DNA of 64,000 bases from an uncultured Candidatus Cloacimonadota bacterium (lineage in GTDB: Bacteria; Cloacimonadota; Cloacimonadia; Cloacimonadales; WRIO01): assembly GCA_964573665.1 (NCBI GenBank), contig CAZNKI010000001.1, positions 28,583 through 92,582 of the forward strand, in the 5' to 3' direction. Below, piece by piece: positions 4,721-62,800 of this stretch. The notes under the pieces were generated by a model. The model was not told the DNA's origin. It saw only the letters and a list, made by a program, of their open reading frames with translations, and did not search any database. Made by a program: the position numbers and the translations under genes. Position 1 is the first letter of the stretch. Each line of letters opens with the position of its first letter.

Positions 4721-5416
4721 TTATTGGGTATCATTCAAGAGATTAAAAATCAGTTCTAAGTTGATTTTAAAGTGAACAAGAGAACCTGATATCACTTTAT
4801 AGTCATAGATCAAAGCGTTTTTTTTCATATATTGCAGTGCTGAGAACACCTGTTCGTAATTTAAAGAATGTACTTTTGAGAATTCTGAAATTGAGATTGC
4901 GATATCATCTGGAACTGACAGGTTTTTAAGGTTATTCATAAGCAGAAGGCTGGCGATTTTCTTTAAGACGATCTTTTCATTGAGCCGACTCATTCTTTCA
5001 TTCATCATTGTTAAGTTTTGTGAGAATGAACGAAAGAGGCGGTACATGAGGTCTGGAATCTGTAAGAGCGCATTGAGAAAATCCTCATTTGAGAACTCAG
5101 CAAGGACGCCGTTTGCTGTTGATTTAACCGACGCTGTTCTTTTTTTATCCAGAAAGAGCCCCATTTCACCGAAGATATCACCTTCTTTGAGTTGTGCAAT
5201 AATCACTAAATCAGTAAGAATATCTTTTCTAAACACATCCAAAGTACCAGATAGGACGATAAATACTTTATCAGAAGGTCCGCCTTCAGTGACTATGATT
5301 TCATCTTTTCTGACGACTTTCTTCTTGCTGAATTTCATAATAAAGGAGACTGTATCGTCATATTTTTTTGATGACAGATCTCCAATAATTTCATAAAGGT
5401 TTGTGGGCATATTCAT
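4721..5416 (-). CDS. Cyclic-nucleotide-binding-domain protein (Crp/Fnr-like)
   Basis: The block EGDIFGEMGLF...RTASVKS is the canonical cNMP-binding beta-roll signature. The C-terminal part could be a wHTH, but that is not clear by eye. Confidence 0.65.
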   Translation of the reverse strand: MNMPTNLYEIIGDLSSKKYDDTVSFIMKFSKKKVVRKDEIIVTEGGPSDKVFIVLSGTLDVFRKDILTDLVIIAQLKEGDIFGEMGLFLDKKRTASVKSTANGVLAEFSNEDFLNALLQIPDLMYRLFRSFSQNLTMMNERMSRLNEKIVLKKIASLLLMNNLKNLSVPDDIAISISEFSKVHSLNYEQVFSALQYMKKNALIYDYKVISGSLVHFKINLELIFNLLNDTQ

Positions 5417-5466: not shown

Positions 5467-7131
5467 TTATAATGAGATTAAAATATCATTTTCAACTTTT
5501 AAAGCTAATTGGTTTATTTGATCAATTAATGATTGAGATTTAGTGATAATATCGTTTTTAAAGGCTTCATCATTAATACTTCCCATGTTGATTTTGATGT
5601 TGAGGAAAGCGGCTTTAGCTGCAGCATTTGCTGTGATTGCGGCTACACCTGCATCTGAAAGAGCGTTTTTATTGCCGATCTTTGCAATCTTTTCAGCAAG
5701 AATCACACAATCATTTGCAATTTCCAAAGTTTTGAATGGGATGAGAATAGCATTTTTTGTTGCTTCTTCCATCTTCGTGTTTCTCAATGCTTTTTCTTCA
5801 TCAGTGCTTTTTGGCAATCTCATGGCATCCATCATTTCATAGAAAGCTTGAGTATCATCATCGATTGCTCTAAGCGCTTCTGCTTTAACTTTTTGAGCAT
5901 CTTCAGCAATTGGTTTTGCCTTTTCCCAAACATTTTCATAACCTTTTTTATTGATGGTAAGGTTTGCCACCATTGCACTAAGTCCAGCTGACATTGAAGC
6001 ACATAAAGCTGCAACACTTCCGCCACCAGGAGCAGGAGAGTCTGTTGATAATTCGTCACAGAAACCTTCAAGCGTAAGATCAACCAATCTTTTTTCAGGT
6101 TGAATTGCATATTCAATAACTTTTTTATCAATATCAAAAGGTGCAAGTTCTGCTAGCCCCATTGACTGGATCGCTGTTTCAATGATCATACGATCAGGTA
6201 AACCTGCACTTTCGCCTAAGCGATTGAGGTAATATTTTCCTGCCATGATGATCGCATCTCTCGGGATCAGTCCAACAAGTTCGCTACCTGTTACCACTAA
6301 TCCTTTTTCTATTGCAAGTTCTCTAACTTTTTCGAGAACAAGGTGAGCAGGAGTGATATTATAATTGGTCAGATTCATACTGATCTGAGCACGATTGTAT
6401 TCATCAATATACCAGCCTACAGCTTTACAATGTTTGAATAAACCATCTTCAAACAGCTTTTCGCCATTTGCATCTTTCATGATTTTTCCATCAGCATCGC
6501 GTTTGAGTTTTCCTTTTTCACGAATCAGTTCAGCGATATCTTGAGCTTTCTTTTTATCTCTTGTATTCAGATTGATATTGTAAGCAATTAAGAATTCTCT
6601 AGCGCCAATTACAGTTGCGCCTGATTTTTCATTAAATGCGAAGGGACCAAAGTCAGGTCTCCAGTATTCATCTTTCATTTTGTCTGGTAAAGCTTCATAT
6701 TCGCCTTTTCTGATTTCAGCTAAATTGACTCTTTCAGGTTTTGAAGCAGAATATTCATAAAGATAAACAGGTATATTTAATTCTTCACCTACACGTTTTG
6801 CGAGCGTTTTTGATAGTTCGATACATTCTTCCATACTAACGCCAGTCACAGGAATGAAAGGGCAAACGTCTGTAGCACCCATTCTTGCGTGAGCACCGTG
6901 ATGTTTTGACATATCGATCAGTTCAGCTGCCTTTTTGATTGCCAGAAATGCTGCATCAACAACAGCTAAAGGTTCTCCAACAAATGTGAATACTGTTCGA
7001 TTGGTATCAGCACCTGGATCGACATCAAGTAAGGTGACATTTTTTACAGATTTAACCTGAGCTGCTATTGCATCTAAAATTGAACGGTCACGTCCTTCGC
7101 TGAAATTCGGAACACATTCGATGAGTTTCAT
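5467..7131 (-). CDS. ftcD: Glutamate formimidoyltransferase / formimidoyltetrahydrofolate cyclodeaminase (bifunctional FTCD)
   Basis: The N-terminus MKLIECVPNFSEGRD is the formiminotransferase signature. The C-terminal ~200 aa is an Ala-rich helical cyclodeaminase domain (DSPAPGGGSVAAL). SD GGAGGA lies upstream of ATG 7131. Confidence 0.9.
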   Translation of the reverse strand: MKLIECVPNFSEGRDRSILDAIAAQVKSVKNVTLLDVDPGADTNRTVFTFVGEPLAVVDAAFLAIKKAAELIDMSKHHGAHARMGATDVCPFIPVTGVSMEECIELSKTLAKRVGEELNIPVYLYEYSASKPERVNLAEIRKGEYEALPDKMKDEYWRPDFGPFAFNEKSGATVIGAREFLIAYNINLNTRDKKKAQDIAELIREKGKLKRDADGKIMKDANGEKLFEDGLFKHCKAVGWYIDEYNRAQISMNLTNYNITPAHLVLEKVRELAIEKGLVVTGSELVGLIPRDAIIMAGKYYLNRLGESAGLPDRMIIETAIQSMGLAELAPFDIDKKVIEYAIQPEKRLVDLTLEGFCDELSTDSPAPGGGSVAALCASMSAGLSAMVANLTINKKGYENVWEKAKPIAEDAQKVKAEALRAIDDDTQAFYEMMDAMRLPKSTDEEKALRNTKMEEATKNAILIPFKTLEIANDCVILAEKIAKIGNKNALSDAGVAAITANAAAKAAFLNIKINMGSINDEAFKNDIITKSQSLIDQINQLALKVENDILISL

Positions 7132-7350
7132 TCTTCCTCCATTGATTCTATTAATGAAATCTATTTTCTACATTGAATAATTTTTGTCCATAGTTTTTTT
7201 AATAACAAGAGCTTTGAATTATCAACGACCTTTCTAAAATCCATCCAACACATTGATTTTAACGACCAGCTCCGTTTTTTCGTAACACAACCAACCTGGT
7301 TGTGAACCGTAACGCGAGCTACCAGCTAGCGAAATCTTCTTTCTTGTTCT

Positions 7351-7699
7351 GCGAACATCCTTGTTTGCAGTACATGGTCAATAAATGATTCCTTAACAAC
7401 CATGGCAATCTGTTAGCTTGCTTTACGCGATACACGACCATCTCAAATCACTCCGGCACAAATATTTATACGAGCAGCTCCATTCCCCTCTGTGGAGGGG
7501 TGGACGCGTTAGCGGACGGGGTGGTCATGGAAAAAGTGCATCTTTTTTTGATGCCAGTAGTTCATCAAGGAGACCCCACGCTTCACGATGTTCCGCTCTG
7601 GGTGACAGATGATCGTTTTTGTAGTTTTGCCGGAATATTCCATCTATCGAAATCTCATACATCCCAAGGAGTGCACAACGAGAGCAATCTGTTTGCTCG
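7351..7699 (+). repeat. GC-rich structured element, copy A1 (candidate ncRNA or MITE-like repeat)
   Basis: About 349 bp and roughly 93-95% identical by eye to 9174-9521. It contains the 26-nt head CACGACCATCTCAAATCACTCCGGCA (7433-7458), the 46-nt GC core (7481-7526) with hairpin CCCCTC-TGTG-GAGGGG (7485-7500), and hairpin GCATC-T7-GATGC (7538-7554). TCCGGCA (head) is complementary to TGCCGGA (about 7630-7636). The ORF-track entries 7418..7612, 7500..7790 and 7609..7794 only translate this repeat. Confidence 0.7.
7403..7418 (+). promoter_or_regulatory. Sigma-54-like -24/-12 element (TGGCAA-N5-TAGCT) just upstream of the A1 head
   Basis: GG at 7404-7405 and GC at 7416-7417 are separated by 10 nt, as in the TGGCAC-N5-TTGCW consensus, with two mismatches to that consensus. 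The equivalent sequence in the other copies has AG instead of GG, so only this copy looks functional. Confidence 0.25.
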
Positions 7700-7711
7700 C
7701 TTTACGGGATT

Positions 7712-7744
7712 GGGTAGGCAAAAACCTGTCCACACATTTTTTTT
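7712..7744 (+). terminator. Possible terminator after element A1
   Basis: GGGTAGG (7712-7718) pairs with CCTGTCC (7725-7731) with two G-U pairs. A 5-nt spacer and then T8 (7737-7744) follow. The geometry is non-canonical. Confidence 0.35.
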
Positions 7745-7806
7745 CACAACTATGCGTCTGTCAAAGATCATTTTCGAGCTGTTTTTTTGAATGATCAAAA
7801 TCGATC

Positions 7807-7840
7807 AAAAAAAAACATGCCCCTCTATATATATAGGGGA
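7807..7840 (-). terminator. Possible minus-strand terminator (GC-clamped AT hairpin plus T9)
   Basis: Minus strand reads CCCCTATATATATAGAGGGG-CATG-TTTTTTTTT. It lies about 118 nt downstream of the small minus-strand ORF 7958..8110. Confidence 0.35.
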
Positions 7841-7957
7841 TCCTTCAAGCTATAAAGTATTTTAAAAGTATGACTTTTATGCATTCTAACTAAATGTAAA
7901 ATAGTCTGATGCAAAAAAAGTAAAAAATGAAATAATGATTTTTTTTTGAATGCATAT

Positions 7958-8110
7958 TTAGGCGTTATTGTTTATGTTAAAGAAATAAAAAATGACAGTA
8001 TCGTTTATTCTGCTTATACAGCTCAAGCTTATTAATCTCTCCGTCTCTTTCTTCTTGCGGATCTGATCCTCCTCGTAGGAAGTCAGTTCAGAAGTTTCAT
8101 TGCGAAACAT
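7958..8110 (-). CDS. Unannotated 50-aa ORF between the 22-bp array and the putative terminator (hypothetical; possibly a gene remnant)
   Basis: Hand translation gives MFRNETSELTSYEEDQIRKKKETERLISLSCISRINDTVIFYFFNINNNA. The first ~30 codons have coding-like composition and the rest is AT-rich. There is no clear SD, and the ORF is below the 60-aa track cutoff. Confidence 0.2.
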   Translation of the reverse strand: MFRNETSELTSYEEDQIRKKKETERLISLSCISRINDTVIFYFFNINNNA

Positions 8111-8327
8111 GCTAATCTTGTAATTTCTCAGAGATTAAATTACACATTTATCAAAAAAACATTTTACTAAACAAACATCTTCTGAATAAAAATCAAAAAA
8201 ATCTTCTTTTAAATCATCTCTCCATCATTTCCAAAATATTGGCACTCTTTTATACGTTCATCTTCTTAATCTTATCTTCTGATCGAGAGAAGAGATCTTA
8301 TTGGTGATTGATTGATAATAAGGATTT

Positions 8328-8635
8328 GACATTTTGTCACATATGAAGTGACATTTTGTCACCTATGATTTAACATTTTGTTCAGTATGATGCGACATTT
8401 TGTCACTTATGATTTAACATTTTGTTCAGTATGATGTGACATTTTGTTCAGTATGAAGTGACATTTTGTAACCTATGATTTAACATTTTGTTCAGTATTA
8501 TGCGACATTTTGTCACCTATGATTTAACATTTTGTTCAGTATGATGCGACATTTTGTTCAGTATGATTCGACATTTTGTTCAGTATGATGCGACATTTTG
8601 TCAACTATGATTTAACATTTTGTTCAGTATGTTCA
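8328..8635. repeat. Tandem array of 14 x 22 bp (iteron- or operator-like)
   Basis: Unit starts at 8328, 8350, 8372, ... 8614 have exact 22-bp phasing. Consensus is RACATTTTGTYMASTATGATKY. Two unit types occur, GACATTTTGTCACCTATGATTT and AACATTTTGTTCAGTATGATGC, often alternating as a 44-bp super-repeat. The invariant core ACA-TTT-TGT is a dyad, extended to GTGACA-TTT-TGTCAC in type 1. Confidence 0.95.
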
Positions 8636-9105
8636 TGAAATTTATTATGATTTTTAATAAAAAAATGGGATATTCAAAGAATAAAAAATATAAAATTATT
8701 TAGTTTTACTAGAAAACTGCGTTCAATCTGATCCTGATTTTCATTTCTATCACCCCTAAAAAGGTTATGATTTCTACGTTTTAATAGAGCTTTTTATCTA
8801 TGAGTTTCATAGGAACGGTAGATGATTAACACAGGCTGTGAGGACTGTGAACATGATCTCAGAAAAAGAGCGCCATCAGTACAACACCGAAATTCAGTCA
8901 TATTTTTCGTAAATATTTTATATTTTCTGCATCAAAGAATTTATAAGATATATAAAATAAATAGCTGAACCGAGAGCAAGACGGCAGTACTAAGAGCGTA
9001 TGCCTGAGCTGAATTAGCAAAATTGGTTATTTTTTATCTCAAAATGGGTGTCTGGAGATATTTGATATCAAGTATTTTTTCTGTTTCCTGTATCTAAGAA
9101 TTTAA

Positions 9106-9179
9106 ATGTAGGGGCAGGTTTTACGCCTGCCCAATCATAAGTAGGGGCGAACCTGTGTGTTCGCCATCGTTCAGCGAAC
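9106..9179. repeat. Two GTAGGGGC-initiated GC hairpins (REP-like)
   Basis: GGGCAGG-TTTTACG-CCTGCCC spans 9112-9132 and GGCGAAC-CTGTGT-GTTCGCC spans 9146-9165. An alternative pairing is GTTCGC (9159-9164) with GCGAAC (9174-9179). Confidence 0.8.
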
Positions 9180-9521
9180 ATCTCTGTTTGCAGTACATGC
9201 CCAAGCAATGATTCATTAACAACCATAGCAATCTGCTCCCTTGCTTTACGCGATACACGACCATCTCAAATCCCTCCGGCACAAAGATTTATACGAGCAG
9301 CTCCATTCCCCTCTGTGGAGGGGTGGACGCGTCAGCGGACGGGGTGGTCATGAAAAAATTGCATTTTTTTTGATGCCAGTAGTTCATCAAGGAGACCCCA
9401 CGCTTCACGATGTTCCGCTCTGGGTGACAGATGATCGTTTTTGTAGTTTTGCCGGAATATTACATCTATCGAAATCTCATACATCCCAAGGAGTGCACAA
9501 CGAGAGCAATCTGCTTGCTCG
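9174..9521 (+). repeat. GC-rich structured element, copy A2
   Basis: Collinear with A1: head at 9256-9281 and GC core at 9304-9349. ORF 9241..9576 is a translation of the repeat (PLWRGGRVSGRGGH comes from the GC core). Confidence 0.7.
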
Positions 9522-9533
9522 TGTTAAACGATA

Positions 9534-10048
9534 CACGACCATCTCATATCACTCCGGCAAATATATTATTAACTGAATCAGTCATTCAGAGCGGAACGTA
9601 GTGTAGCGTGGAATCTCCCATAGAACATCATGCATCATGTTTTTTATTGTAATCGCAAGTTTGTGAATTTTATTATTCGTGTAAGAAAGCATCCATGAAC
9701 TGAACTTAATCGATAAATAATAGATCATCAACGAGATAACAATGACCACCCCGTCCGCAGAAGGGATTTGAGATGCTCGTAATAATTTGCTTTGTTGGAG
9801 TGATTTGAGATTGATGTATTTTATGTTTTCAGATGTACGGCACTTCGTTTCGCACATCCTTACAAGTGTTAAAAGATTGTATTGTAAGATGTTAGATTAT
9901 TGTACAAGCAGACCACCCCGTCCGCTAACGCGTCCACCCCTCCACAGAGGGGAATGAAGATTTACGGCAAATTACCAAACTGTTAATGCAATATATATGC
10001 TATGTAGCAACACAACAAACAAAAAAGTACATTCCAAAAAGTTCAGTT
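9534..10048 (-). repeat. 515-bp repeat unit B1 (holds a diverged, inverted copy of the A element plus an extra GC core)
   Basis: Head at 9534-9559, truncated core at 9744-9766, inverted head-like GGAGTGATTTGAGAT at 9797-9811, and full core (reverse orientation) at 9911-9956. The reverse complement aligns block by block with A (details in findings). Confidence 0.75.
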
Positions 10049-10525
10049 CACGACCATCTCAAATCACTCCGGCATATCTATTATTAACTGAATCAGTCAT
10101 TCAGAGCGGAACGTAGTGTAGCGTGGAATCTCCCATAGAACATCATGCATCATGTTTTTTATTGTAATCGCAAGTTTGTGAATTTTATTATTCGTGTAAG
10201 AAAGCATCCATGAACTGAACTTAATCGATAAATAATAGATCATCAACGAGATAACAATGACCACCCCGTCCGCAGAAGGGATTTGAGATGCTCGTAATAA
10301 TTTGCTTTGTTGGAGTGATTTGAGATTGATGTATTTTATGTTTTCAGATGTACGGCACTTCGTTTCGCACATCCTTACAAGTGTTAAAAGATTGTATTGT
10401 AAGATGTTAGATTATTGTACAAGCAGACCACCCCGTCCGCTAACGCGTCCACCCCTCCACAGAAGGGAATGGAGATTTACGGCAAATTACCATGCTGAAA
10501 TGCAATTTATATTGTATGTAAAGCC
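10049..10525 (-). repeat. Repeat unit B2 (tandem duplicate of B1, period 515 bp)
   Basis: Head at 10049-10074, truncated core at 10259-10281, full core at 10426-10471. ORFs 9582..9857 and 10097..10372 are 100% identical at the protein level, so the duplication is recent. Similarity fades after about 10525. Confidence 0.75.
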
Positions 10526-10578
10526 AACTGGTGGACATGCAAAACTGTTTTTATTGACACATATATTCAAACAAAGGA

Positions 10579-10608
10579 TAAAAAAAGAGACGCCGTTTAA
10601 GCGTCTCT
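10579..10608 (-). terminator. Rho-independent terminator of htpG
   Basis: Minus strand reads AGAGACGC-TTAAACG-GCGTCTCT followed by T7, immediately after the htpG stop at 10625. Confidence 0.8.
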
Positions 10609-10624
10609 TCATAATATATAATGA

Positions 10625-12436
10625 TTAAATCATTTGAAGTATTTTGTTGGCTTTTTGGATAAATGCCTGTAATTCATCGCCAGTAAATCTTTTTTGTTCC
10701 AACATAGCCAAGTCATGAATATAATTAGCAATCAGAGAAGCATCTTCAGTTTTACCTTCGGCTTGAAGTGCAGAAACTTTTTTCACAGTAGGATTTTCTA
10801 CATTGATGACCAGAGTATGGTTTTTTAGCATATCCTGACCACCGAGTCCCTGATTCATAGCATGCATTTCCTGGAAGCGTCTCATAAATTCATCATAGAT
10901 GATCATACCAGGTATATTCTCGGTTTTTAAATGTTTCGCTTCAATGGTTACAGCTTCATTATTCAGTGCCTGTACGAAGGTTTCTTTGATTTTATCAGCT
11001 TCGTTTTTAGCATTTTCATCTATGTTTTCAGATTTATCTTTATCAACGAGTGTTTCGTTAATTTCTGAGTCAATTCGAACAAATCTAACGTTTGTTTTTT
11101 TGCTTTCAAGGTGTGAAAGTAAATGAGTATCTAAGATTGAATCACAGAAGATGACTTCCATTCCTTGATCTTTGATGAGGTTGAGCAATGATACCTGAGT
11201 ATTTTCGCTGATTCCATAGTAAATCTTTTTATGTTCATCTTCCTGAGGATTTCTTTCAAGATATTGATCAACCGTGATATAGTCGCCTTTTGAAGATTTA
11301 AAGATTAAGACATCTCTGATGGCTTCTGAAAAATCATCTTCAGTTAAAACGCCATATTTCACAAACTGGTTGATATCTTCCCAGTAAGATTCGTATTTTG
11401 AGCGATCTTCAGCAAAGGTGTTTTTGAAGTGATCAGCCACTTTTCTGATAATGTATTTTTTGATTTTCTGAACTTCTTTATCATTTTGAAGGAAGCTTCT
11501 CGAGACATTTAAAGGAATATCTGGTACGTCAATACCTCCTCGGAGCATCATGAGAAATTCTGGGATGAATTCTTTTAAATTGTCAGCGACAAAGACATTG
11601 TTGCAATAGAGTTTTACAGTTCCGCGAGTGAGTTCAGCATCATTTTTAATTTTTGGGAAATAGAGAATCCCTTTTAAGTTAAAAGGATAATCCAGATTTA
11701 AATGAATTTGGAATAGAGGATCTTGCCATTCGTGGAAGATCTTTTTATAGAACTCTTTGTATTCTTCGTCAGTGACATCATTTGGTTTTCTGTTCCAAAG
11801 CGCTTCTTTCTGATTGACGATGTCTTTGCCCAACATAATCGTAAATGGCATGAAATTACAATACTTTTCGAGCAATTCTTTCATCTTGAATTCTTCTAAG
11901 TATTCATCAGCCTCTGCATTAAGATGTAAGGTAATCGTGGTACCGACTTTTTTCCTTTTGCCTTTGGAAAGCGTGTATTCAGTAGAGCCATCACATTCCC
12001 AGAATGCCGGCTCAGCGCCTTCATTCATCGATAAAGAGTCGATGGTGACTTTTTCTGAAACCATAAAGGAAGAGTAAAATCCTAAACCAAAATGACCGAT
12101 GATGTTTGATTGCTGATCTTTGAATTTTTCAACAAAGTCTTCAGCACCAGAAAAGGCGATTTGGTTGATATACTTTTCGATTTCTTCTGCAGTCATACCG
12201 ATACCATAATCGATAATTTTGATGCAACGTTTCTTTTTATCTATTTCGATCTCAATTCTCAGTTCTTCAGGTTGAACATTGGTATCGAGAATTTTTCTTT
12301 TGTTCATTGCATCAATTGCATTGGAAACTAATTCACGAATAAAGATATCATGTTCAGAATACAACCATTTTTTGATAATAGGAAAGATATTCTCAGTGTG
12401 GATACTTAAAGATCCGTTTTTCTTTTCATTCGCCAT
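10625..12436 (-). CDS. htpG: Molecular chaperone HtpG (Hsp90)
   Basis: TENIFPIIKKWLYSEHDIFIRELVSNAIDA and GHFGLGFYSSFMV are Hsp90 N-domain signatures. The start is moved to ATG 12436 (MANEKK...), 6 nt after GGAGGT; the track start 12466 is an upstream extension. Confidence 0.9.
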   Translation of the reverse strand: MANEKKNGSLSIHTENIFPIIKKWLYSEHDIFIRELVSNAIDAMNKRKILDTNVQPEELRIEIEIDKKKRCIKIIDYGIGMTAEEIEKYINQIAFSGAEDFVEKFKDQQSNIIGHFGLGFYSSFMVSEKVTIDSLSMNEGAEPAFWECDGSTEYTLSKGKRKKVGTTITLHLNAEADEYLEEFKMKELLEKYCNFMPFTIMLGKDIVNQKEALWNRKPNDVTDEEYKEFYKKIFHEWQDPLFQIHLNLDYPFNLKGILYFPKIKNDAELTRGTVKLYCNNVFVADNLKEFIPEFLMMLRGGIDVPDIPLNVSRSFLQNDKEVQKIKKYIIRKVADHFKNTFAEDRSKYESYWEDINQFVKYGVLTEDDFSEAIRDVLIFKSSKGDYITVDQYLERNPQEDEHKKIYYGISENTQVSLLNLIKDQGMEVIFCDSILDTHLLSHLESKKTNVRFVRIDSEINETLVDKDKSENIDENAKNEADKIKETFVQALNNEAVTIEAKHLKTENIPGMIIYDEFMRRFQEMHAMNQGLGGQDMLKNHTLVINVENPTVKKVSALQAEGKTEDASLIANYIHDLAMLEQKRFTGDELQAFIQKANKILQMI

Positions 12437-13785: not shown

Positions 13786-13905
13786 AAGTGCCTCCTCGAA
13801 AGATATGTTTTTTTCAAGAATTATCGAGGTGGGTATTTTGTCAAGGGGAAGGATTTGATGAAAAAGATTGTTTTGATAAGATGAGTAAAGATATTTATCG
13901 GTATT

Positions 13906-13929
13906 TTCGGCTCGAGCCGAGCCGGCTCC
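13906..13929. repeat. 24-nt GC-rich palindromic REP-like element, copy 1
   Basis: Sequence TTCGGCTCGAGCCGAGCCGGCTCC, with overlapping palindromes CGGCTCGAGCCG and GAGCCGGCTC. Confidence 0.85.
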
Positions 13930-13931
13930 AT

Positions 13932-15990: not shown

Positions 15991-16024
15991 TGTATAAATT
16001 TTGAGTAAGGAATTATTCAGTTAA

Positions 16025-16048
16025 TTCGGCTCGATCCGAGCCGGCTCC
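16025..16048. repeat. 24-nt REP-like element, copy 2 (variant TTCGGCTCGATCCGAGCCGGCTCC)
   Basis: Same orientation as copy 1, with one substitution. Confidence 0.85.
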
Positions 16049-16099
16049 AAGACTTGTTTAAAGCATTTGGATTGGATAATTGATCTTCAGAATAATAAT

Positions 16100-16123
16100 T
16101 TCGGCTCGAGCCGAGCCGGCTCC
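16100..16123. repeat. 24-nt REP-like element, copy 3
   Basis: Exact TTCGGCTCGAGCCGAGCCGGCTCC, 8 nt from the stop of the 16131..16790 gene. The spurious ORF 16058..16261 translates it (GAGSARAE). Confidence 0.85.
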
Positions 16124-16130
16124 AGAGATA

Positions 16131-16790
16131 TTATTTTGTTTTGATCGCTTCGACAGGGCAGCCTTTATAATTGTTTGAAGGATTCCCATTTTTACAGATA
16201 CCGCAGGAGATACATTTATCCATATCGATGACCGCTTTCCCTTTTTGCATGGAGATCGCATTCACAGGGCATTGAGAGACGCATAATCTGCATCCGATAC
16301 AGGTCTTTGATTCAACATAATAAATGACTTTCTTAACGATATTTTCTTCTTCATTTTTCAGAGAGTCAGACTGAGGTTTTGTTGTTTCCTGTTTCTTCTC
16401 AACTGCTTTTGCAGTTTCTGTTGGCTTAGCTTCTTTAACTTTATCTTTTTCCGTTACGATGGTCGTCGTATTAGAAGAAGGTTTAATTTCCTGAGTGGTG
16501 ATCTGCTTTTCTTCAATCTTAACTTGATCAATTGCCTTAGTAGGACATCCTGGATATTTTACAGAAGGGTTTTCATTTTTGCAAAGCCCACAAGCAATGC
16601 ATTTATCCATATCAATAATGGCTTTACCACTTTTCATTTGGATGGCATTTGTCGGGCATACTTTGGTTTGAACACAAAGACCACAGCCAATACACTTGTC
16701 TTTGCTTACCTGATACTTTACCACCTGTGAGGTGAGGGCAAAGACCAATAACACTAAAATTAATAGAACTGCGATTTTTTTAATAAACAT
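16131..16790 (-). CDS. Exported tandem ferredoxin-domain protein (two 2x[4Fe-4S]-type domains joined by a K/E/T-rich linker)
   Basis: Signal or anchor sequence MFIKKIAVLLILVLLVFALTSQV with no RR motif. Each half carries CIGCxLCVxxxxCPxNAI ... KCIxCGxCKN. The linker is KIEEKQITTQEIKPSSNTTTIVTEKDKVKEAKPTETAKAVEKKQETTKPQ. Confidence 0.75.
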   Translation of the reverse strand: MFIKKIAVLLILVLLVFALTSQVVKYQVSKDKCIGCGLCVQTKVCPTNAIQMKSGKAIIDMDKCIACGLCKNENPSVKYPGCPTKAIDQVKIEEKQITTQEIKPSSNTTTIVTEKDKVKEAKPTETAKAVEKKQETTKPQSDSLKNEEENIVKKVIYYVESKTCIGCRLCVSQCPVNAISMQKGKAVIDMDKCISCGICKNGNPSNNYKGCPVEAIKTK

Positions 16791-27047: not shown

Positions 27048-27564
27048 TTTTCAAGTATTATGTTTAATATAGTACTTTTCGAATCAAATGATTTTTATGA
27101 ATTAGATTCAAAAAAATATATATTTAAAAATTATTCATGTATTTCAAAAGAGTTAAATTTAAGAATATTAGATGCTATATTTTTCGATATGTATAAATAA
27201 AGAAAATTTTGACAAAACAAAAAAAGTGCTTTACAAAAAAATGCAAATAATGAAAAAAAGTGTTATCTCTGAAGTTTATAAAGTCTAAGGTGATAAACTA
27301 TGACTCATAAACCAATGGGCTAAATCCGAAAAGATTTAACCTCCCGTCGATGGAAAGGAGTAAACATGAATGCAGTAAACTCGGTAGATAAGCCGATTAG
27401 TGATTCAATAGTAAAGCACATCAAAGGCTATCAAAAAAACAGTATTTGTAAATTATGCTATTTATTCAATGATCAACGATAATGAATTTTGTCAAAATAA
27501 AGCAAAAATTTATGTTATCAGCCATCATCAATCATTTTTATGTATATTCAATTGAAGAAAAAAA

Positions 27565-27866: not shown

Positions 27867-29648
27867 ATGAGTGACATGATTACAATTACAATTGATGGGA
27901 AAGTTATTGAGACTAAGTCAAGTAACACAATATTGCAAGCGGCAAAAGAGCATGGGATTTATATTCCTACGCTATGTTGGCATGAAGATTTAGCGCCAAC
28001 GTCAAACTGTGGGATTTGTGTAGTGTATGTGGACAAAAACACACAACCGAAGAGAGCATGCAGTACCCCAGTTTATCCAGGAATGAGTATTGTAAGCAAT
28101 AGCAAGGAATTACGATTATTCAGAAAAACATTACTTCAATTGTTTTTAGCGAATCATGACATTGATTGTCCTTCATGTAATGCAAATAATAAATGTGAAC
28201 TTCAAGAGTTATGCAACAATATGGGTGTAAAAATATTAGATGCGCCTGCCATTTATAAGAAAAAAGATTTAGATGAGAGTAGTATCGCTATAACAAGAGA
28301 TCCAAATAAATGTATCTCATGTGGACGCTGTGTAACCGTATGTAATGATGTGCAGGGAGTATCTGCTTTAACATTTGTTAATAGAGGTTTTGACGGTCAA
28401 GTGGATGTTGCTTTTTTAAATGGGTTAGGAAACAGTGCATGTATCAATTGTGGTCAATGTATCGTCTATTGCCCAACAGGTGCATTAAGTGAGCGTTCAC
28501 ATATTGATGAAGTATGGGAAGCCATTTATAATAATGACAAATATGTCATTGTTCAGGAAGCTCCAGCAATTCGTGCATCATTAGCCGATGAATTTGGCAT
28601 GAATATGGAAGACGTGACACCTGGAAAAATGTATGCAGCATTGAGAACCATAGGATTTGACGCTGTAATGGATACCAATTTTACAGCCGATTTAACGATT
28701 ATGGAAGAAGGAACTGAGCTTGTTGACCGAGTAAAGAAAAATCTGCCATTACCATTAATCACATCATGTTCACCAGGCTGGATCAAATATATGGAAACAT
28801 TCTATCCAGATTTAGCTCCTTACGTATCAACTGCAAAATCACCCATGTCCATGTTTGGCGTATTAAGTAAAACATATTATGCTCAGAAGAATAATATTGA
28901 TCCCGCAAAAATCGTATCTGTAGCGATCATGCCATGTACAGCGAAAAAATTTGAAGCGAATCGACCAGAATTAAGAGATTCTGGTTTTCAAGATACAGAC
29001 TATGTATTAACGACACGTGAGTTTATCAAATTAATCAAAGAAGCTGGTATTGATTTCAAGAATATTCAAGAGGAGCAAGCAGATCAAGGTATGAGTTTTT
29101 ATACTGGAGCTGGAACAATTTTTGGAGCTACAGGCGGGGTAATGGAAGCTGCAATTCGTTCAGCATTTACACTAATCACTGGAGATGAATTACAAGAAGT
29201 TGACATTAAAGTTGTCAGAGGGTTGGAAGGCATCAAAGAAGGAACTGTTGATATCCCAGGATTTGGATTGTTAAAAGTTGCTGTTGCGCACGGAACAAGT
29301 AATGCTCAGAAATTGATGGATAAAGTCAGAGCACAAATCAGTGAAACAGGTAAGTCAGAATATCATTTTATTGAGGTCATGGCATGTCCTGGCGGATGTG
29401 TGGGCGGAGGTGGCCAACCTTATGGTAACAGCTTAAGTAAGAGAGTAAAACGTGCTAATGCATTATATAAAGAAGATCAAAATATGAAGATCAGAAAATC
29501 ACATCACAATCCAGAAGTAGTAAAGATATATGAAGAATTTTTAGGTTCACCGAATTCACCATTAGCTCAGAAATTGTTACATACACATTATTTTGAGCGA
29601 TCACAGATTAATGGTCAAGTGGTGAAGGAAGTGACCCATAAGCATTAA
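27867..29648 (+). CDS. hydA: Monomeric [FeFe]-hydrogenase (clostridial-type, with N-terminal 2Fe-2S and accessory 4Fe-4S domains)
   Basis: H-cluster motifs TSCSPGW, MPCTAKKFE and EVMACPGGCVGGGGQP. The N-terminal region has CGICVV, HDIDCPSCNANNKC, CISCGRCVTVC and CINCGQCIVYCP. SD GGAGAG lies upstream. Confidence 0.9.
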   Translation: MSDMITITIDGKVIETKSSNTILQAAKEHGIYIPTLCWHEDLAPTSNCGICVVYVDKNTQPKRACSTPVYPGMSIVSNSKELRLFRKTLLQLFLANHDIDCPSCNANNKCELQELCNNMGVKILDAPAIYKKKDLDESSIAITRDPNKCISCGRCVTVCNDVQGVSALTFVNRGFDGQVDVAFLNGLGNSACINCGQCIVYCPTGALSERSHIDEVWEAIYNNDKYVIVQEAPAIRASLADEFGMNMEDVTPGKMYAALRTIGFDAVMDTNFTADLTIMEEGTELVDRVKKNLPLPLITSCSPGWIKYMETFYPDLAPYVSTAKSPMSMFGVLSKTYYAQKNNIDPAKIVSVAIMPCTAKKFEANRPELRDSGFQDTDYVLTTREFIKLIKEAGIDFKNIQEEQADQGMSFYTGAGTIFGATGGVMEAAIRSAFTLITGDELQEVDIKVVRGLEGIKEGTVDIPGFGLLKVAVAHGTSNAQKLMDKVRAQISETGKSEYHFIEVMACPGGCVGGGGQPYGNSLSKRVKRANALYKEDQNMKIRKSHHNPEVVKIYEEFLGSPNSPLAQKLLHTHYFERSQINGQVVKEVTHKH

Positions 29649-53929: not shown

Positions 53930-54601
53930 ATGAAAAGATATATATTAACACTCATTATCTGTTTTAGCCTTTTTTTGGTTTATGCACAAAATGTTGCAGT
54001 ACTTGCTGGTATGAAAGGTGATATTTCTGTTGTTCGTGATGGCAAAGCCATTAAGATAAAAAACAACGAATTGTTAAAGAACTTTGATGAAATCAGATCA
54101 GGAGAAGAATCATTTGCAGCCATTCGTTTTATAGATAACGGTGCAACCACGAAATTATTCCCTAACTCTGTTTTGGTCATTAGTGCAGAGAAGAGTGGAA
54201 AAAACTTGAATAAGCATAATAACTTAAGCAAAGGGATGATCCAAACCAAAGTGACACCAAAAAGTGGCCAATTTGTTGTTGAAACACCCAATACTGTGGC
54301 GTCTGTAAAAGGTACTGACTTTATAACACAGTATCAGCTAAGAAAAACAACCATTGGCGTGATCGAAGGTGAAGTAGAGATCAGAAACAAGGTGAGCAAC
54401 CGATCAATAAGTTCTGGTGAAAATGATGTGTACAGCAGTGATGATGAAGGTAATATCAATGAAGAAGAGGATGATTCTTTCTTACAGAATGATGAAAATT
54501 ACCAATCAGAAAATGTAGCTCCACAACAAGGAAATAATCTTGAAATAGAAATAAGAAAAGAAGATGGAACCACAAAGAAAGTGAGAATACACTATGAGTA
54601 A
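53930..54601 (+). CDS. FecR-domain protein
   Basis: It has a signal peptide, a VASVKGTDF...GVIEGEVEI pattern typical of the FecR fold, and an acidic tail. Confidence 0.6.
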   Translation: MKRYILTLIICFSLFLVYAQNVAVLAGMKGDISVVRDGKAIKIKNNELLKNFDEIRSGEESFAAIRFIDNGATTKLFPNSVLVISAEKSGKNLNKHNNLSKGMIQTKVTPKSGQFVVETPNTVASVKGTDFITQYQLRKTTIGVIEGEVEIRNKVSNRSISSGENDVYSSDDEGNINEEEDDSFLQNDENYQSENVAPQQGNNLEIEIRKEDGTTKKVRIHYE

Positions 54602-59867: not shown

Positions 59868-62800
59868 ATGAAAAAAGTAACATTTTTGACTTTAATGTTA
59901 TTTATTGTACTTTCATTATCTGCTGTAATAACTGAAACTGCTTCATTAAAAGCATTTTTATATGGTTCAGCACCGCAATGTCAGTATGATAACTGGTTAA
60001 GCCATGTTTCTGAAGGAATCGCTTTGGCCAACTATAATCTTTATGCACCATACGATGTTCAAACAAATGGGTTTGGAGATTATATAACTCCAACAGCTGC
60101 TCAGTTGACAGCCTGGGATACAATTGTCACTCTATTTATGCAAGGTGATTTTACAACAGCTGAGATTATTATCAGTGACAATGGATTTCCATATCAGATT
60201 GTAATTTTTAATGATACAGATACAAATCGTCAGTATCATATGCTTAGAGAGACACTTAATATGTCATATACTGACAATAATGGAACTCCTGATGATCCAA
60301 GTGATGATGAAATAGGCAGTTTTTCAAATGGCTGGGGGCTATATATAATTTCAACAACATCAAACAATCCAATAATTGTTAATGTTGTCCATCCTAATGA
60401 TGATTTTATGGTTACTCCTGTTGCATTAAAAGCATTTATTGACTGGGATGCCAAGTATTTTATGGTAGCAGGTGCGGGCAGAGAAGTAAAATGGACAAAT
60501 GTTACTCCATATACAAACTCAAAATCATTGAGTGATCCATCTCGAGTATCTGCTCATCCGTTTAATACTGTTTATAGAAAATTTTGTGATCAAATACGTA
60601 CGCAATATGGCAGACGAGAGTTTTCTGCACAAATTCATAGTTATGACTGGAATCGTCATGAAGGATATCCTAGTTTACAATTATCAGCTGGATATAACAA
60701 CCCCAATCCAAATTTGCCTATAAGAGATTTATCATCTTTAAAACTTGATGTAATCAATGCATCAGATTATGTTATTTTTCCAAGAAACAGTATAGGAATA
60801 CATTCTGAAGTTGATCTATTTGATTATTACGGTGTGCATTATTACAACAATCCTTTCACATATCAACTGGGAGACTCATTAATAGTGGTAAGTAACAATA
60901 TTGATCTTCCAGGATTTTCTCAGAATATTCAACAAAATTATACCTTAAGTGGTCTTACTGATAATGATGTTTATGACCCATTCTTTCATATAGAATTTGA
61001 TGAGCTTCCTAATTGTTATCCACAAAATGTTAATAATTATCATTGGTTTTATGCTTATGATGTTAGCTCTGGATCATTTAACCGAAATGCTCTTTTTGAA
61101 AGAGGTATTGAATTTTACTCAAAGTGGTTGGATGCCATGACAGAAATACTTCCATATACACTGCAACTTAATGATAATCTAATCCCAAGTACACCTCAGA
61201 ATCTTTCTTATGTCAATTCAGGTCAAACTTATATTCGATTATCATGGGAATCAATCGATTGTTTTGATTTTAAAACATATCAAATTCTTTATTCAACCTC
61301 ACCAATTACGGGAGATAATTATCAAATTTTCGATAGAACAAACAATACAGCTTTAGCTGATCCCAATTGTAATAAGATTAGCATTACCGGTTTACAAGCT
61401 GGACAGAACTATTATTTCAAAATTAGAGCACTCGATTATAATAATAATTATTCACAGGCATCTCAAGAACTCAATGCAAATACAGGATCAGCCGTTTTAG
61501 ATAATGTTACAGCATTTGCTGACTATGGAAAAATCGTTCTTAAATGGAGAGCCGTCAGCCAAATCAACAATCAAGGATTTAGGGTATATCGGAAAACTGA
61601 TGTGAGTGATTATGTTCAAATAGCTGATTGGAATTCACATTCATCTTTAGCTCCCAACACTGCAAGTTATGTCAATTACACCTTTGAGGATACTAATGTA
61701 ACAAATTACCTTACTTATACATATAAAATAGCTTATGTACATACTAACGGGAATGTGTTTTATCATTATGAAACACCTCTTGCACAATTACAACCTATAC
61801 ATACTCTTTATGTTAGAAACCAAAATGGTTCAATTGTTGATTCACTCCATTTTTCTAAGAATCCATTTGCAACTGATGGAAAAGATGCAAATTTTGATGT
61901 TGCAAAACCAACAACAACTTCTGGGAATTATATATGGGCAGGTCTTTATGAACAATACTGGTCATCAAATGGTGATTATCTTGGTAGAGAAGTATTTGGT
62001 GATTATGATGTAACAGAAAGTTATAAAATTTTCAGAGTTCTTATTAAATCAAATCAGTTAAGCGTTCCATTAGTAATTTCTGCATCAAATTCATTTAGCA
62101 GGAACTCGGAAAAATTATACATTAGAGAAATGTCTAATAATACCTACACTAATTTATTGAGTAATAATGCTCAGTTTACTGTAGCTAATACTAATTACAA
62201 AGAATTTTATCTTTATTGGGGAAATTTAAATCCATCTGTTAACGTTAATAATTCTCAGAATGTACTATATCAAGCTGGAGCTAATGCAACATTCTATTTT
62301 TCAACTACTTTCAACTTTTTAGTACAAAGCCATACTGTCTATATTAAAAACGAAACAGATAGTATTATTGTTGCTTCAAATTTGCCATTTAATGCCACTT
62401 CAGCATCATTTGTTATTCCAAACAATATCAATATGCCATATGCTAAAGTATATGTTAAAACGGTAGCTCTTGATGGTCAGATATATATAAAAGGATCATC
62501 TTACAATATTGGAATAGTACCATCAGTTTTGTCATTTTCTATTCCTGAGGGAAATTCTTTTGTGGCAAATCCATTTAACACATATCCAATAGAATTATCC
62601 TCTTTACCAGGCCAAAGTCTGTTATATACTTATGATAATCATCAATATACACAGAGTAATTCGATGATTTTTAATAAAGGCTATTTTGTTCATACAACAG
62701 ACTCATATACACAAAACTTTAATCAAAGTGTTTTGGCGTTTGCACAAAATCAAGTTGTAGTATCAGGATGGAATTTATTAGGAAATCCTCATTATTCAAC

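Follow-up and report, generated by a model that had tools for sequence, protein, structure and literature searches.

Plasmids of the class A theta type replicate from an origin that combines an AT-rich region, ∼3.5 iterons of 22 bp, and a rep gene (PMC4490491), and plasmids of the pUCL287 type carry five repeats of 22 bp (PMC5702455). Cooperative binding of Rep proteins depends on the helical phasing of such sites, and each winged-helix (WH) domain of the protein contacts ∼3 nucleotides; the WH2 domain of RepE contacts GTG/GtCA (PMC4980987). The iterons of F ori2 contain GTGACAAA (vector sequence in PMC10706280), the part contacted by RepE WH2 according to a review (PMC4980987). Can an array of this build stand in a bacterial chromosome apart from the gene for its initiator? 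We analyzed a 64,000-nucleotide (64-kb) stretch of contig CAZNKI010000001.1 from an uncultured Candidatus Cloacimonadota bacterium (referred to here as the window; position 1 is its first letter), in which 14 direct units of 22 bp follow one another at positions 8328 to 8635. The invariant 9-bp core of these units recurs in the same 22-bp phase beside plasmid initiator genes and inside phage initiator genes of other organisms. We tentatively interpret the array as an orphaned set of iterons.

The array consists of contiguous, bipartite, and directional units

The sequence-only reading of this DNA had claimed 14 units that start exactly every 22 bp and that share an invariant core followed by TATGA. 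Both claims were borne out. Tandem Repeats Finder (TRF) called the array at 8323-8631 with a period of 22 (14.0 copies, 78% matches, score 337). The core, ACATTTTGT, occurred 16 times in the window compared to 1.8 expected occurrences and a shuffle maximum of 6, and 14 of the 16 copies were located at exact 22-bp steps, from 8329 to 8615. The array and its parts are as follows.

8328..8635, plus strand: tandem array of 14 direct 22-bp units (TRF, exact core spacing, and a per-position table with unit typing)
8329..8623, plus strand: core ACATTTTGT, unit positions 2-10, invariant in 14/14 units
Type A unit: GACATTTTGTCACCTATGATTT, 6 units of the array (unit typing)
Type B unit: AACATTTTGTTCAGTATGATGC, 8 units of the array, 3 of which begin with G (unit typing)
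8635..8715, no strand assigned: flank of very high AT content (12% GC), directly adjoining the array at its 3' end (nearest-neighbor stability scan)

The second conserved block, TATGA, occupies unit positions 15-19 and was intact in 12 of the 14 units. Bases T15, A16, and T17 were invariant throughout the array, and variation was confined to positions 1, 11-14, and 18-22. The centers of the core and of the TATGA block lie 11 bp apart. The array unit is bipartite and directional, with TATGA on only one side of the core, and it is not dyad-symmetric as a whole; the emphasis of the sequence-only reading on a dyad site was overstated in this respect. An extension of the core to a 15-bp dyad in one unit type, which it had also proposed, stands in part: the 13-mer GACATTTTGTCAC has four exact occurrences and two more with one mismatch, but the full dyad GTGACATTTTGTCAC was found a single time, at 8348-8362.

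The two unit types had been said to alternate frequently, with a super-period of 44 bp. Their order along the array, AABABBABABBBAB, is not a strict alternation, and the higher-order period detected in a second TRF call was 66 bp rather than 44 bp (4.6 copies, 82% matches, score 392). This 66-bp period and the repeated A-B and A-B-B' blocks of the array point to an expansion by unequal crossing-over. Taking a helical turn as 10.5 bp, a unit of 22 bp would span ∼2.1 turns, and neighboring sites would face nearly the same side of the DNA. The earlier claim of same-face presentation is correct to that extent, but the helical register would drift by ∼34 degrees per unit along the array.

Of all 80-bp stretches in the window, only three are less stable than the AT-rich flank at 8635-8715. 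Other intergenic regions of the window are as AT-rich, which makes the flank weak evidence, and no repeated 13-mers were identified within it. No open reading frame (ORF) of at least 50 aa crosses the array, all six frames being closed by stops, and a 27-aa ORF is the sole ORF that follows it.

Three other identities for the array were considered and rejected. A structured RNA gene was ruled out by the lack of any Rfam match over the array, at the gathering threshold or at E ≤ 1, and by a single-strand fold that was no better than those of shuffled sequences (z-score, 0.11). A CRISPR array was ruled out as well, the units being contiguous and without unique spacers; the only Rfam CRISPR match in the gap, at 7770-7801, lies outside the array and is weak (E = 0.6, 20.6 bits versus a 50-bit threshold). 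An alternative genetic code was ruled out by inspection, given that the stops across the array mix TGA, TAG, and TAA.

Two copies of ACATTTTGT are located outside the array, at 53980-53994 and 61016-61030, both on the minus strand. Both overlap a plus-strand 9-mer that resembles a DnaA box (TTATGCACA and TTATCCACA), giving TTAT(G/C)CACAAAATGT; this overlap may be due to chance.

Substitutions among the units avoid the core

Could the invariance of the core arise by chance? Compared to the two type consensuses, the array holds 7 fixed differences between types A and B and 14 further distinct substitutions, or 21 events. None of these events fell in positions 2-10, and only 2 fell in positions 15-19. 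When 21 events were placed at random on a circular 22-bp unit, with any offset allowed, an invariant run of at least 9 positions had a probability of P = 3e-4; if only 12 of the events were independent, this value rose to P = 0.025. Homogenization of whole units cannot protect sub-blocks, and the distribution of these substitutions therefore makes it likely that the core is or was under some selection. As far as this pattern goes, the invariant core argues against a purely neutral minisatellite.

The two conserved blocks, one helical turn apart, would have the geometry expected for a protein that approaches from one face with two reading heads, for example, a Rep_3 monomer. In the rest of the 64 kb, we found no dispersed single sites of the bipartite motif (two matches with 2 mismatches compared to 2.9 expected), which argues against the regulon of a host transcription factor.

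The same core recurs in 22-bp phase beside initiator and ATPase genes

Where else is this core repeated in this phase? We surveyed one genome per species, covering 185,579 species, with a pattern of three cores in 22-bp phase. The survey yielded 95 genome loci, and 14 loci were obtained in viral contigs. Most of the retrieved arrays have 3 to 5 units and the next longest have 10 and 8, the 14 units of the window being the longest of ∼110. Neighbor families were defined by clustering the ORFs that adjoin the arrays.

The Rep_3 group comprises 34 loci, in which one protein cluster supplies an ORF of 262 to 350 aa at a distance of 24 to 119 bp from the array. These loci are mostly on small, high-coverage contigs of Lactobacillaceae, Streptococcus, and relatives. 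The assignment to Rep_3 was based on scans of two cluster representatives, both of which carry Rep3_N and Rep3_C. A total of 275 plasmid records annotated "replication initiation protein" match the lactic acid bacterial version of this protein. The lactic acid bacterial and streptococcal loci are the textbook class A theta replicon.

In a second group, with at least 6 further genome loci and 6 of the 14 viral loci, the array lies inside or beside genes for HTH_36, DnaD_N, or Phg_2220_C proteins. All 7 of the 7 tested proteins of this group match PHROG families for "replication initiation (O-like)," and their Pfam domains are HTH_36, DnaD_N, and Phg_2220_C. The loci come from metagenome-assembled genomes (MAGs) of Clostridia, Verrucomicrobiota, and Prevotella and from viral contigs, and their units have the form GACATTTTGTC(N11), repeated 3 to 4 times. 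The arrays lie inside an ORF of 248 to 304 aa on the opposite strand, which reads successive units in three frames (DKMS, QNV, and TKC) because 22 mod 3 = 1. This group is the lambda-O arrangement, with the origin within the initiator gene. Such in-gene 22-bp iterons of phages and prophages, with the peptide motifs DKMS/QNV/TKC in a protein linker, were seen at loci L049, L081, L085, L105, L107, L113-L115, and L117.

The third group comprises 20 loci from Bacteroidales or from unclassified or otherwise labeled MAGs (Prevotella among them), most of them on long chromosomal contigs. Here, 3 to 10 units of AACATTTTGTAAnGGAGATTTG stand beside a gene for an ATPase of ∼397 aa with AAA_14 and DUF4143 domains.

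ATPase-group loci (1): L007, L017, L023-L025, L027, L030, L032, L036, L038
ATPase-group loci (2): L052, L054, L060, L063, L072, L074, L080, L082, L087, L091

In 19 of these 20 loci, the array ends 1 to 160 bp upstream of the ATPase start (1 to 44 bp in 18 loci); the exception is L072, in which the ATPase ORF ends 107 bp upstream of the array. Where the loci were read, the final unit of the array either contains TAnnTTTG or extends into the ATG. Some arrays of the group alternate two unit types (L051, L060, and L064). We found no published description of Bacteroidales 22-bp arrays before AAA_14/DUF4143 ATPase genes in the literature, and these arrays look like a conserved but undescribed upstream element of a very common ATPase family.

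Arrays without a partner were also retrieved. Two MAGs of Clostridia have orphan arrays between housekeeping genes (L016:2676-2790 and L076:3215-3345), built from 4 to 6 units of a 13-bp palindrome, TGACATTTTGTCA(G/C)..., with a period of 20 to 23 bp. Similar AT-rich stretches, TATATATTTATTAT...CTTTATTAT, stand before both arrays, and no initiator gene was found within these 8-kb loci.

As a control, two permuted cores at 22-bp phase gave 4 and 0 stretches in viral contigs compared to 14 for the core itself. The arrays linked to O-like and ATPase genes have a second conserved patch beyond the core, at somewhat different positions than TATGA. Among the papers listed in a literature search for the core string ACATTTTGT, all matches were unrelated and eukaryotic. 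The recurrence of one 9-bp core in 22-bp phase in three contexts may point to a shared mode of winged-helix recognition.

The survey also provided several observations on arrays of other kinds. Three contigs of one Flavobacteriaceae MAG (L021, L043, and L094) each carry an array of AACATTTTGTTTATAA(C/T)GCTAA, which is dispersed in that genome. In L021, the array lies 154 bp from a 143-aa ORF whose HVHLIF motif is reminiscent of tyrosine transposases associated with IS200 or with repetitive extragenic palindromic (REP) elements. Core arrays with a 21-bp period (L123-L182) are found in many cases in giant-virus bins, often several per contig at ∼1 kb from one another. Those with a 23-bp period (L183-L232) belong to a phage family of ∼45 kb from one sample, usually with two arrays ∼780 bp apart.

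No partner gene accompanies the array

The neighbors of the array are the genes for formiminotransferase-cyclodeaminase (FTCD) and HtpG, and no initiator gene of the WH1-WH2 type (Rep3_N/Rep3_C) adjoins it. The only matches obtained in the partner-gene searches were those of array translations to one another. Among the genes of the window there were no partition genes of the parA/parB, parM/parR, or tubZ/tubR types. DnaA boxes with at most one mismatch numbered 28 in the window compared to 23 expected, with 0 in 7132-10624.

These results confirm the statement of the sequence-only reading that no rep, par, or DNA-binding gene is adjacent, and they extend it to the whole 64 kb for homologs and detectable remnants of Rep_3, O-like, and AAA_14/DUF4143 genes. 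The iteron-like anatomy that it had recognized agrees with the survey, in which the same core in 22-bp phase stands beside Rep_3 genes and inside phage O-like genes. Its other suggestions found no such backing: the window holds no par operon for a centromere, no integrated element with recognizable genes, and no DnaA-box cluster for an origin of the oriC kind.

The gene for a Crp-family regulator at 4721-5416 was considered as a source of the binding protein. It keeps its synteny in relatives without the array, which lends this candidate no support. We take the core dyad to be one base too long for boxes of the CRP or PrfA type.

The array lies in a lineage-specific, repeat-ridden island

The features of the region that surrounds the array are as follows.

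7132..10624, no strand assigned: gene-free, repeat-ridden island, the only long noncoding stretch of the window (ORF maps, Pfam, and Rfam)
5467-7131, minus strand: formiminotransferase-cyclodeaminase gene (FTCD), left neighbor of the island
10625-12436/12466, minus strand: htpG, right neighbor of the island
7346..7704, plus strand: left copy of R360, a direct repeat of ∼360 bp (repeat families D3 and D4)
9169..9526, plus strand: right copy of R360 (repeat search and alignment)
9534..10563, plus strand: R515, a 515-bp element in two tandem copies (repeat family D2, alignment)
7478..7526 (plus strand), 9301-9349 (plus strand), 9911-9959 (minus strand), and 10426-10474 (minus strand): 49-nt GC-rich module CTCCATTCCCCTCTGTGGAGGGGTGGACGCGTTAGCGGACGGGGTGGTC

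The two R360 copies are 91 to 94% identical, with start-to-start spacings of 1823 bp (D3) and 1822 bp (D4), and they bracket a segment of 1.46 kb that holds the array. The R515 copies are 99% identical over the 300 nt compared, and each contains the 49-nt module in inverted orientation. The island repeats had no Rfam, Pfam, or viral-contig matches, and an exact scan of viral contigs for the 49-nt module gave 0 matches. The small ORFs around the array had no family matches either, and Rfam detected nothing in the island.

Three relatives, with FTCD identities of 87%, 79%, and 78%, keep the FTCD-Crp-SpoU-peptidase block. In each of them, a different gene is located upstream of FTCD, with 90 to 130 bp of intergenic sequence, and the array and the 49-nt module are absent from the syntenic position. 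On this comparison the island is lineage-specific, which is as expected for acquired DNA and argues against a conserved chromosomal role such as that of oriC. Short-read contigs whose FTCD, HtpG, or type IX secretion system (T9SS) protein is identical or 97 to 99% identical to that of the window all end in the repeats that flank the array, short of the array itself. These breaks of the contigs of close strains in or beside the island repeats (contig ends L001, L100, and L233) suggest that the repeats are multicopy in the genome. Look-ups with three small island ORFs, made for strain comparison, returned no matches.

The 49-nt module contains a hairpin, CCCCTC-TGTG-GAGGGG. Inverted pairs of the module bound segments of ∼660 bp to 2.5 kb, like the terminal inverted repeats of a nonautonomous element, and a variant of its 3' end is present at the end of L098.

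Homologs of FTCD place the window in Candidatus Cloacimonadota. Around the island, the window is dense with ordinary chromosomal genes. They encode an isochorismatase-family protein, an MA-type peptidase, a SpoU methylase, the Crp-family protein, FTCD, HtpG, arginine deiminase, two-component systems, hydrogenase maturation proteins, UvrD, IspC/IspG, and T9SS cargo proteins. No tRNA genes were found in the window.

Further observations concern the window at large. The cumulative GC skew is flat or lowest at ∼6 to 14 kb and rises after that, even though the minus strand carries the genes up to 27 kb; a stretch of this length does not suffice to place a turning point of the skew near the island. 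A molybdenum cofactor (Moco) riboswitch (Rfam RF01055, 50.1 bits, E = 5e-9) is located at 27255-27376 on the plus strand, upstream of a 93-aa ORF and a [FeFe]-hydrogenase-like gene (27867-29648), which is not the usual context of molybdenum cofactor biosynthesis or transport. A GC-rich palindromic element ending in TTCGGCTCGAGCCGAGCCGGCTCCA is present in three copies (13888-13930, 16007-16049, and 16082-16124). As the ORFs were called, the 5' end of the arginine deiminase ORF contains one copy; the other two are in the gap that precedes a ferredoxin-like gene (16131-16790) or at the edge of this gap. The element is possibly REP-like or a terminator.

A proposed orphaned iteron-type array and its alternatives

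What could such an array do without its partner? Our preferred explanation, held tentatively and with somewhat less than even confidence, is that it is an orphaned array of the iteron type, which unequal crossing-over has enlarged and which would bind a winged-helix protein of the initiator type encoded elsewhere; it would be either a relic or a titration site. The array would offer 14 head-to-tail, nearly in-phase sites to such a protein (of the Rep_3 or lambda-O-like class). Each molecule would read the ACATTTTGT block and then the TATGA block one helical turn on, in the way that a Rep_3 monomer uses its two reading heads on the two halves of a 22-bp iteron, and neighboring molecules would bind cooperatively because their sites are two turns apart. 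In this model, a set of 3 to 6 iterons from a plasmid or phage origin would have been left in the lineage-specific, repeat-ridden junk island of a Cloacimonadota chromosome, where unequal crossing-over of blocks of one, two, and three units would have raised the copy number to 14. The array cannot act as an origin alone because its cognate protein is not encoded in the window. In a cell with a cognate replicon, it would soak up the initiator, the classical incompatibility exerted by iterons in trans; otherwise, it would be a young relic. The array may work like an iteron array, and we do not place it in a family of replicon origins because the defining adjacent initiator gene is lacking.

A more specific proposal, which we consider quite unlikely, is that of a chromosomal iteron decoy. 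The host would keep and expand a set of high-affinity initiator sites because they titrate the replication initiator of a particular invading plasmid or phage, an incompatibility-style immunity without a protein-coding defense gene. Selection for binding would then hold the core and TATGA, and the two Clostridia orphans could be further cases.

Several findings weigh against an orphaned iteron-type array. No initiator or remnant of one came to light: a tblastn search of all ORFs neighboring the arrays against the 64-kb window gave no Rep_3, O-like, HTH_36, or AAA_14/DUF4143 match at E < 1e-3, the six-frame translation of 7700-9170 had no initiator match in PHROGs, and profile hidden Markov models of Rep_3 and of the ATPases, run with --max on ORF fragments of 7100-10700, gave a best match of E = 0.49 and 2.9 bits. 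Nor were there signs of the mobile replicon itself, with no mobile-element gene (integrase, transposase, rep, or par) found in the 64 kb and with BLAST of the island giving one weak 100-bp match in PLSDB plasmids and none in INPHARED phages. The array has 14 copies and two interspersed unit types, both atypical of working origins with their 3 to 7 iterons. Its unit lacks close kin: none elsewhere shares more than 8 of the 13 noncore positions with type A or B, and the arrangement core-N4-TATGA-N4-core gave 0 matches in viral contigs and, in metagenomes, one two-unit chance match in an AT-rich contig. Because the search pattern required the core, its presence in all retrieved arrays is partly imposed, and the informative outcome is what adjoins such arrays. 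Initiators are not the only context of the core, as it precedes ATPase genes in the Bacteroidales loci, and it also forms arrays with periods of 21 bp and 23 bp in viral contigs (60 and 51 stretches, respectively), dominated by giant-virus bins and one phage lineage. Finally, the constraint on the core depends on few truly independent mutations.

The main rival is a plain minisatellite, which we regard as possible but on the whole doubtful. It would be a neutral repeat in a junk island, created and enlarged by slippage or unequal crossing-over, that binds no particular protein and whose iteron likeness is a coincidence of an AT-rich 9-mer. A minisatellite explains why the array is found in a gene-free island that is specific to the lineage and crowded with other repeats, why a partner gene or remnant is lacking, and why the unit has no relatives; block duplications would produce the 66-bp higher-order structure. 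A copy number well above that of verified iteron sets is consistent with it, as is a core that is also found in arrays of other periods and in nonreplication contexts, and the statistical case for constraint weakens if few of the mutations are independent. What it does not explain are the protected blocks. The 21 distinct substitutions all avoid the 9-bp block and largely avoid the second, 5-bp block; moreover, the protected block is the motif common to arrays beside initiator genes, and permuted cores at the same phase were the rarer ones in viral contigs. Constraint of this kind fits any sequence-specific binder, and the array might instead be a binding or regulatory platform for a host-encoded factor outside replication, either an operator- or promoter-like array or a nucleoid-organizing site. 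We judge this unlikely. Cloacimonadota are usually grouped with Bacteroidota in the Fibrobacteres-Chlorobi-Bacteroidetes (FCB) group, and the 20 Bacteroidales loci with AACATTTTGTAAnGGAGATTTG arrays at ATPase genes, together with the alternating unit types of some of them, favor such a platform. Yet no gene follows the array of the window, the nearest start codon (that of FTCD) being 1.2 kb away, and no ATPase homolog or remnant is present in the window. The lack of dispersed bipartite sites argues against a regulon, and the nearby Crp-family gene is kept in synteny by relatives that lack the array.

The remaining alternatives are less probable again. Many plasmid centromeres are repeat arrays, and direct repeats in helical phase would suit the centromere of an integrated or former plasmid (parC/parS/tubC-like); in a locus from Chlamydiae (L004), the same core even lies 200 bp from a putative ParA-like ORF (assigned by visual inspection of the sequence). 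With no partition gene pair of the three types in the window, and with the neighbors of ∼110 related arrays being overwhelmingly initiators or ATPases rather than partition operons, we consider a centromere very unlikely. It is highly improbable that the length or arrangement of the array is an artifact of repeat misassembly in a metagenome-assembled genome. The island repeats do break every short-read contig of close strains, and the tandem R515 copies are nearly identical, but the irregular order of unit types and the private substitutions of single units are unlike collapsed or looped assemblies. The flanking unique sequence is continuous as well, though the copy number could still be imprecise. 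A chromosomal origin (oriC) or another conserved chromosome-maintenance site is scarcely credible and is largely refuted by nonconservation: an essential site would be conserved, and the syntenic position in relatives holds neither the island nor the array. The low cumulative GC skew of this region and the AT-rich stretch that abuts the array would suit an origin, but the skew signal is weak and noisy within 64 kb, DnaA boxes form no cluster and are absent from the island, and neither dnaA nor another replication gene is nearby.

If the array still binds a protein of the initiator type, it would be a rare case of iterons clustered apart from a replicon, in a chromosome belonging to an uncultured phylum. 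Plasmids or phages of this phylum could then be sought by matching the bipartite site ACATTTTGT-N4-TATGA, and the idea of chromosomal iteron banks that interfere with mobile replicons would become testable. If it is only a relic or a minisatellite, it would amount to ordinary genomic debris, of some use for telling strains apart.

Comparison with known systems

The reference systems that pair Rep_3 proteins with iterons are the pUCL287/pCI305-type plasmids of lactic acid bacteria, RepE of F, pi of R6K, and RepA of pPS10. Like the iterons of Rep_3 class A theta replicons, the units of the array follow one another in direct orientation at steps of exactly 22 bp, or two helical turns. They have the same ACATTTTGT core as the Rep_3 arrays of lactic acid bacteria and streptococci, a sharing that is partly imposed by the search pattern, and the type A unit contains TTTGTCAC, which on the opposite strand reads as the GTGACAAA of the ori2 iterons of F. 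With respect to core orientation, the array has its AT-rich flank on the side on which the Rep_3 plasmids of lactic acid bacteria have the AT-rich leader between iterons and rep, a weak similarity given that other intergenic regions of the window are as AT-rich. The bipartite conservation would fit a monomer with two winged-helix domains. Unlike Rep_3 origins, the array has no rep gene or remnant, has 14 copies rather than 3 to 7, and intersperses two unit types. It also differs from them in its location in a chromosomal junk island, in its lack of a DnaA box, and in a noncore half that matches no known iteron.

Some units of the phage O-like in-gene origins, which are built from GACATTTTGTC(N11), share the 13-mer GACATTTTGTCAC with type A (as in L105 and L115), and the O-like arrays resemble the array of the window in having a second conserved patch beyond the core. 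In the phage genes, however, the initiator ORF reads through the array, whereas the frames of the window array are closed and its flanks encode no initiator domain. The iteron clusters incA of P1 and incC of F are auxiliary copy-control elements that titrate or handcuff the initiator and do not fire as origins. Titration is likewise the activity that would be expected of an orphan array if an initiator were present, but incA and incC lie within a replicon next to rep, and no replicon is identifiable at the array of the window.

The arrays at Bacteroidales ATPase genes are similar in core, 22-bp phase, and chromosomal location, reach up to 10 copies, and in some cases alternate unit types; 19 of the 20 end at the promoter and start codon of the ATPase, unlike the window array, which has no ATPase gene or remnant. 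The Clostridia orphans (L016 and L076) also lie between housekeeping genes with no initiator within reach and with an AT-rich stretch adjoining, but they have fewer copies, a different noncore half, and the AT-rich flank on the other side. Finally, the array resembles the minisatellites known in bacteria as variable-number tandem repeats in being an intergenic tandem repeat with higher-order duplication. In contrast to neutral minisatellites, its substitutions are not evenly spread but are kept out of the core and largely out of TATGA.

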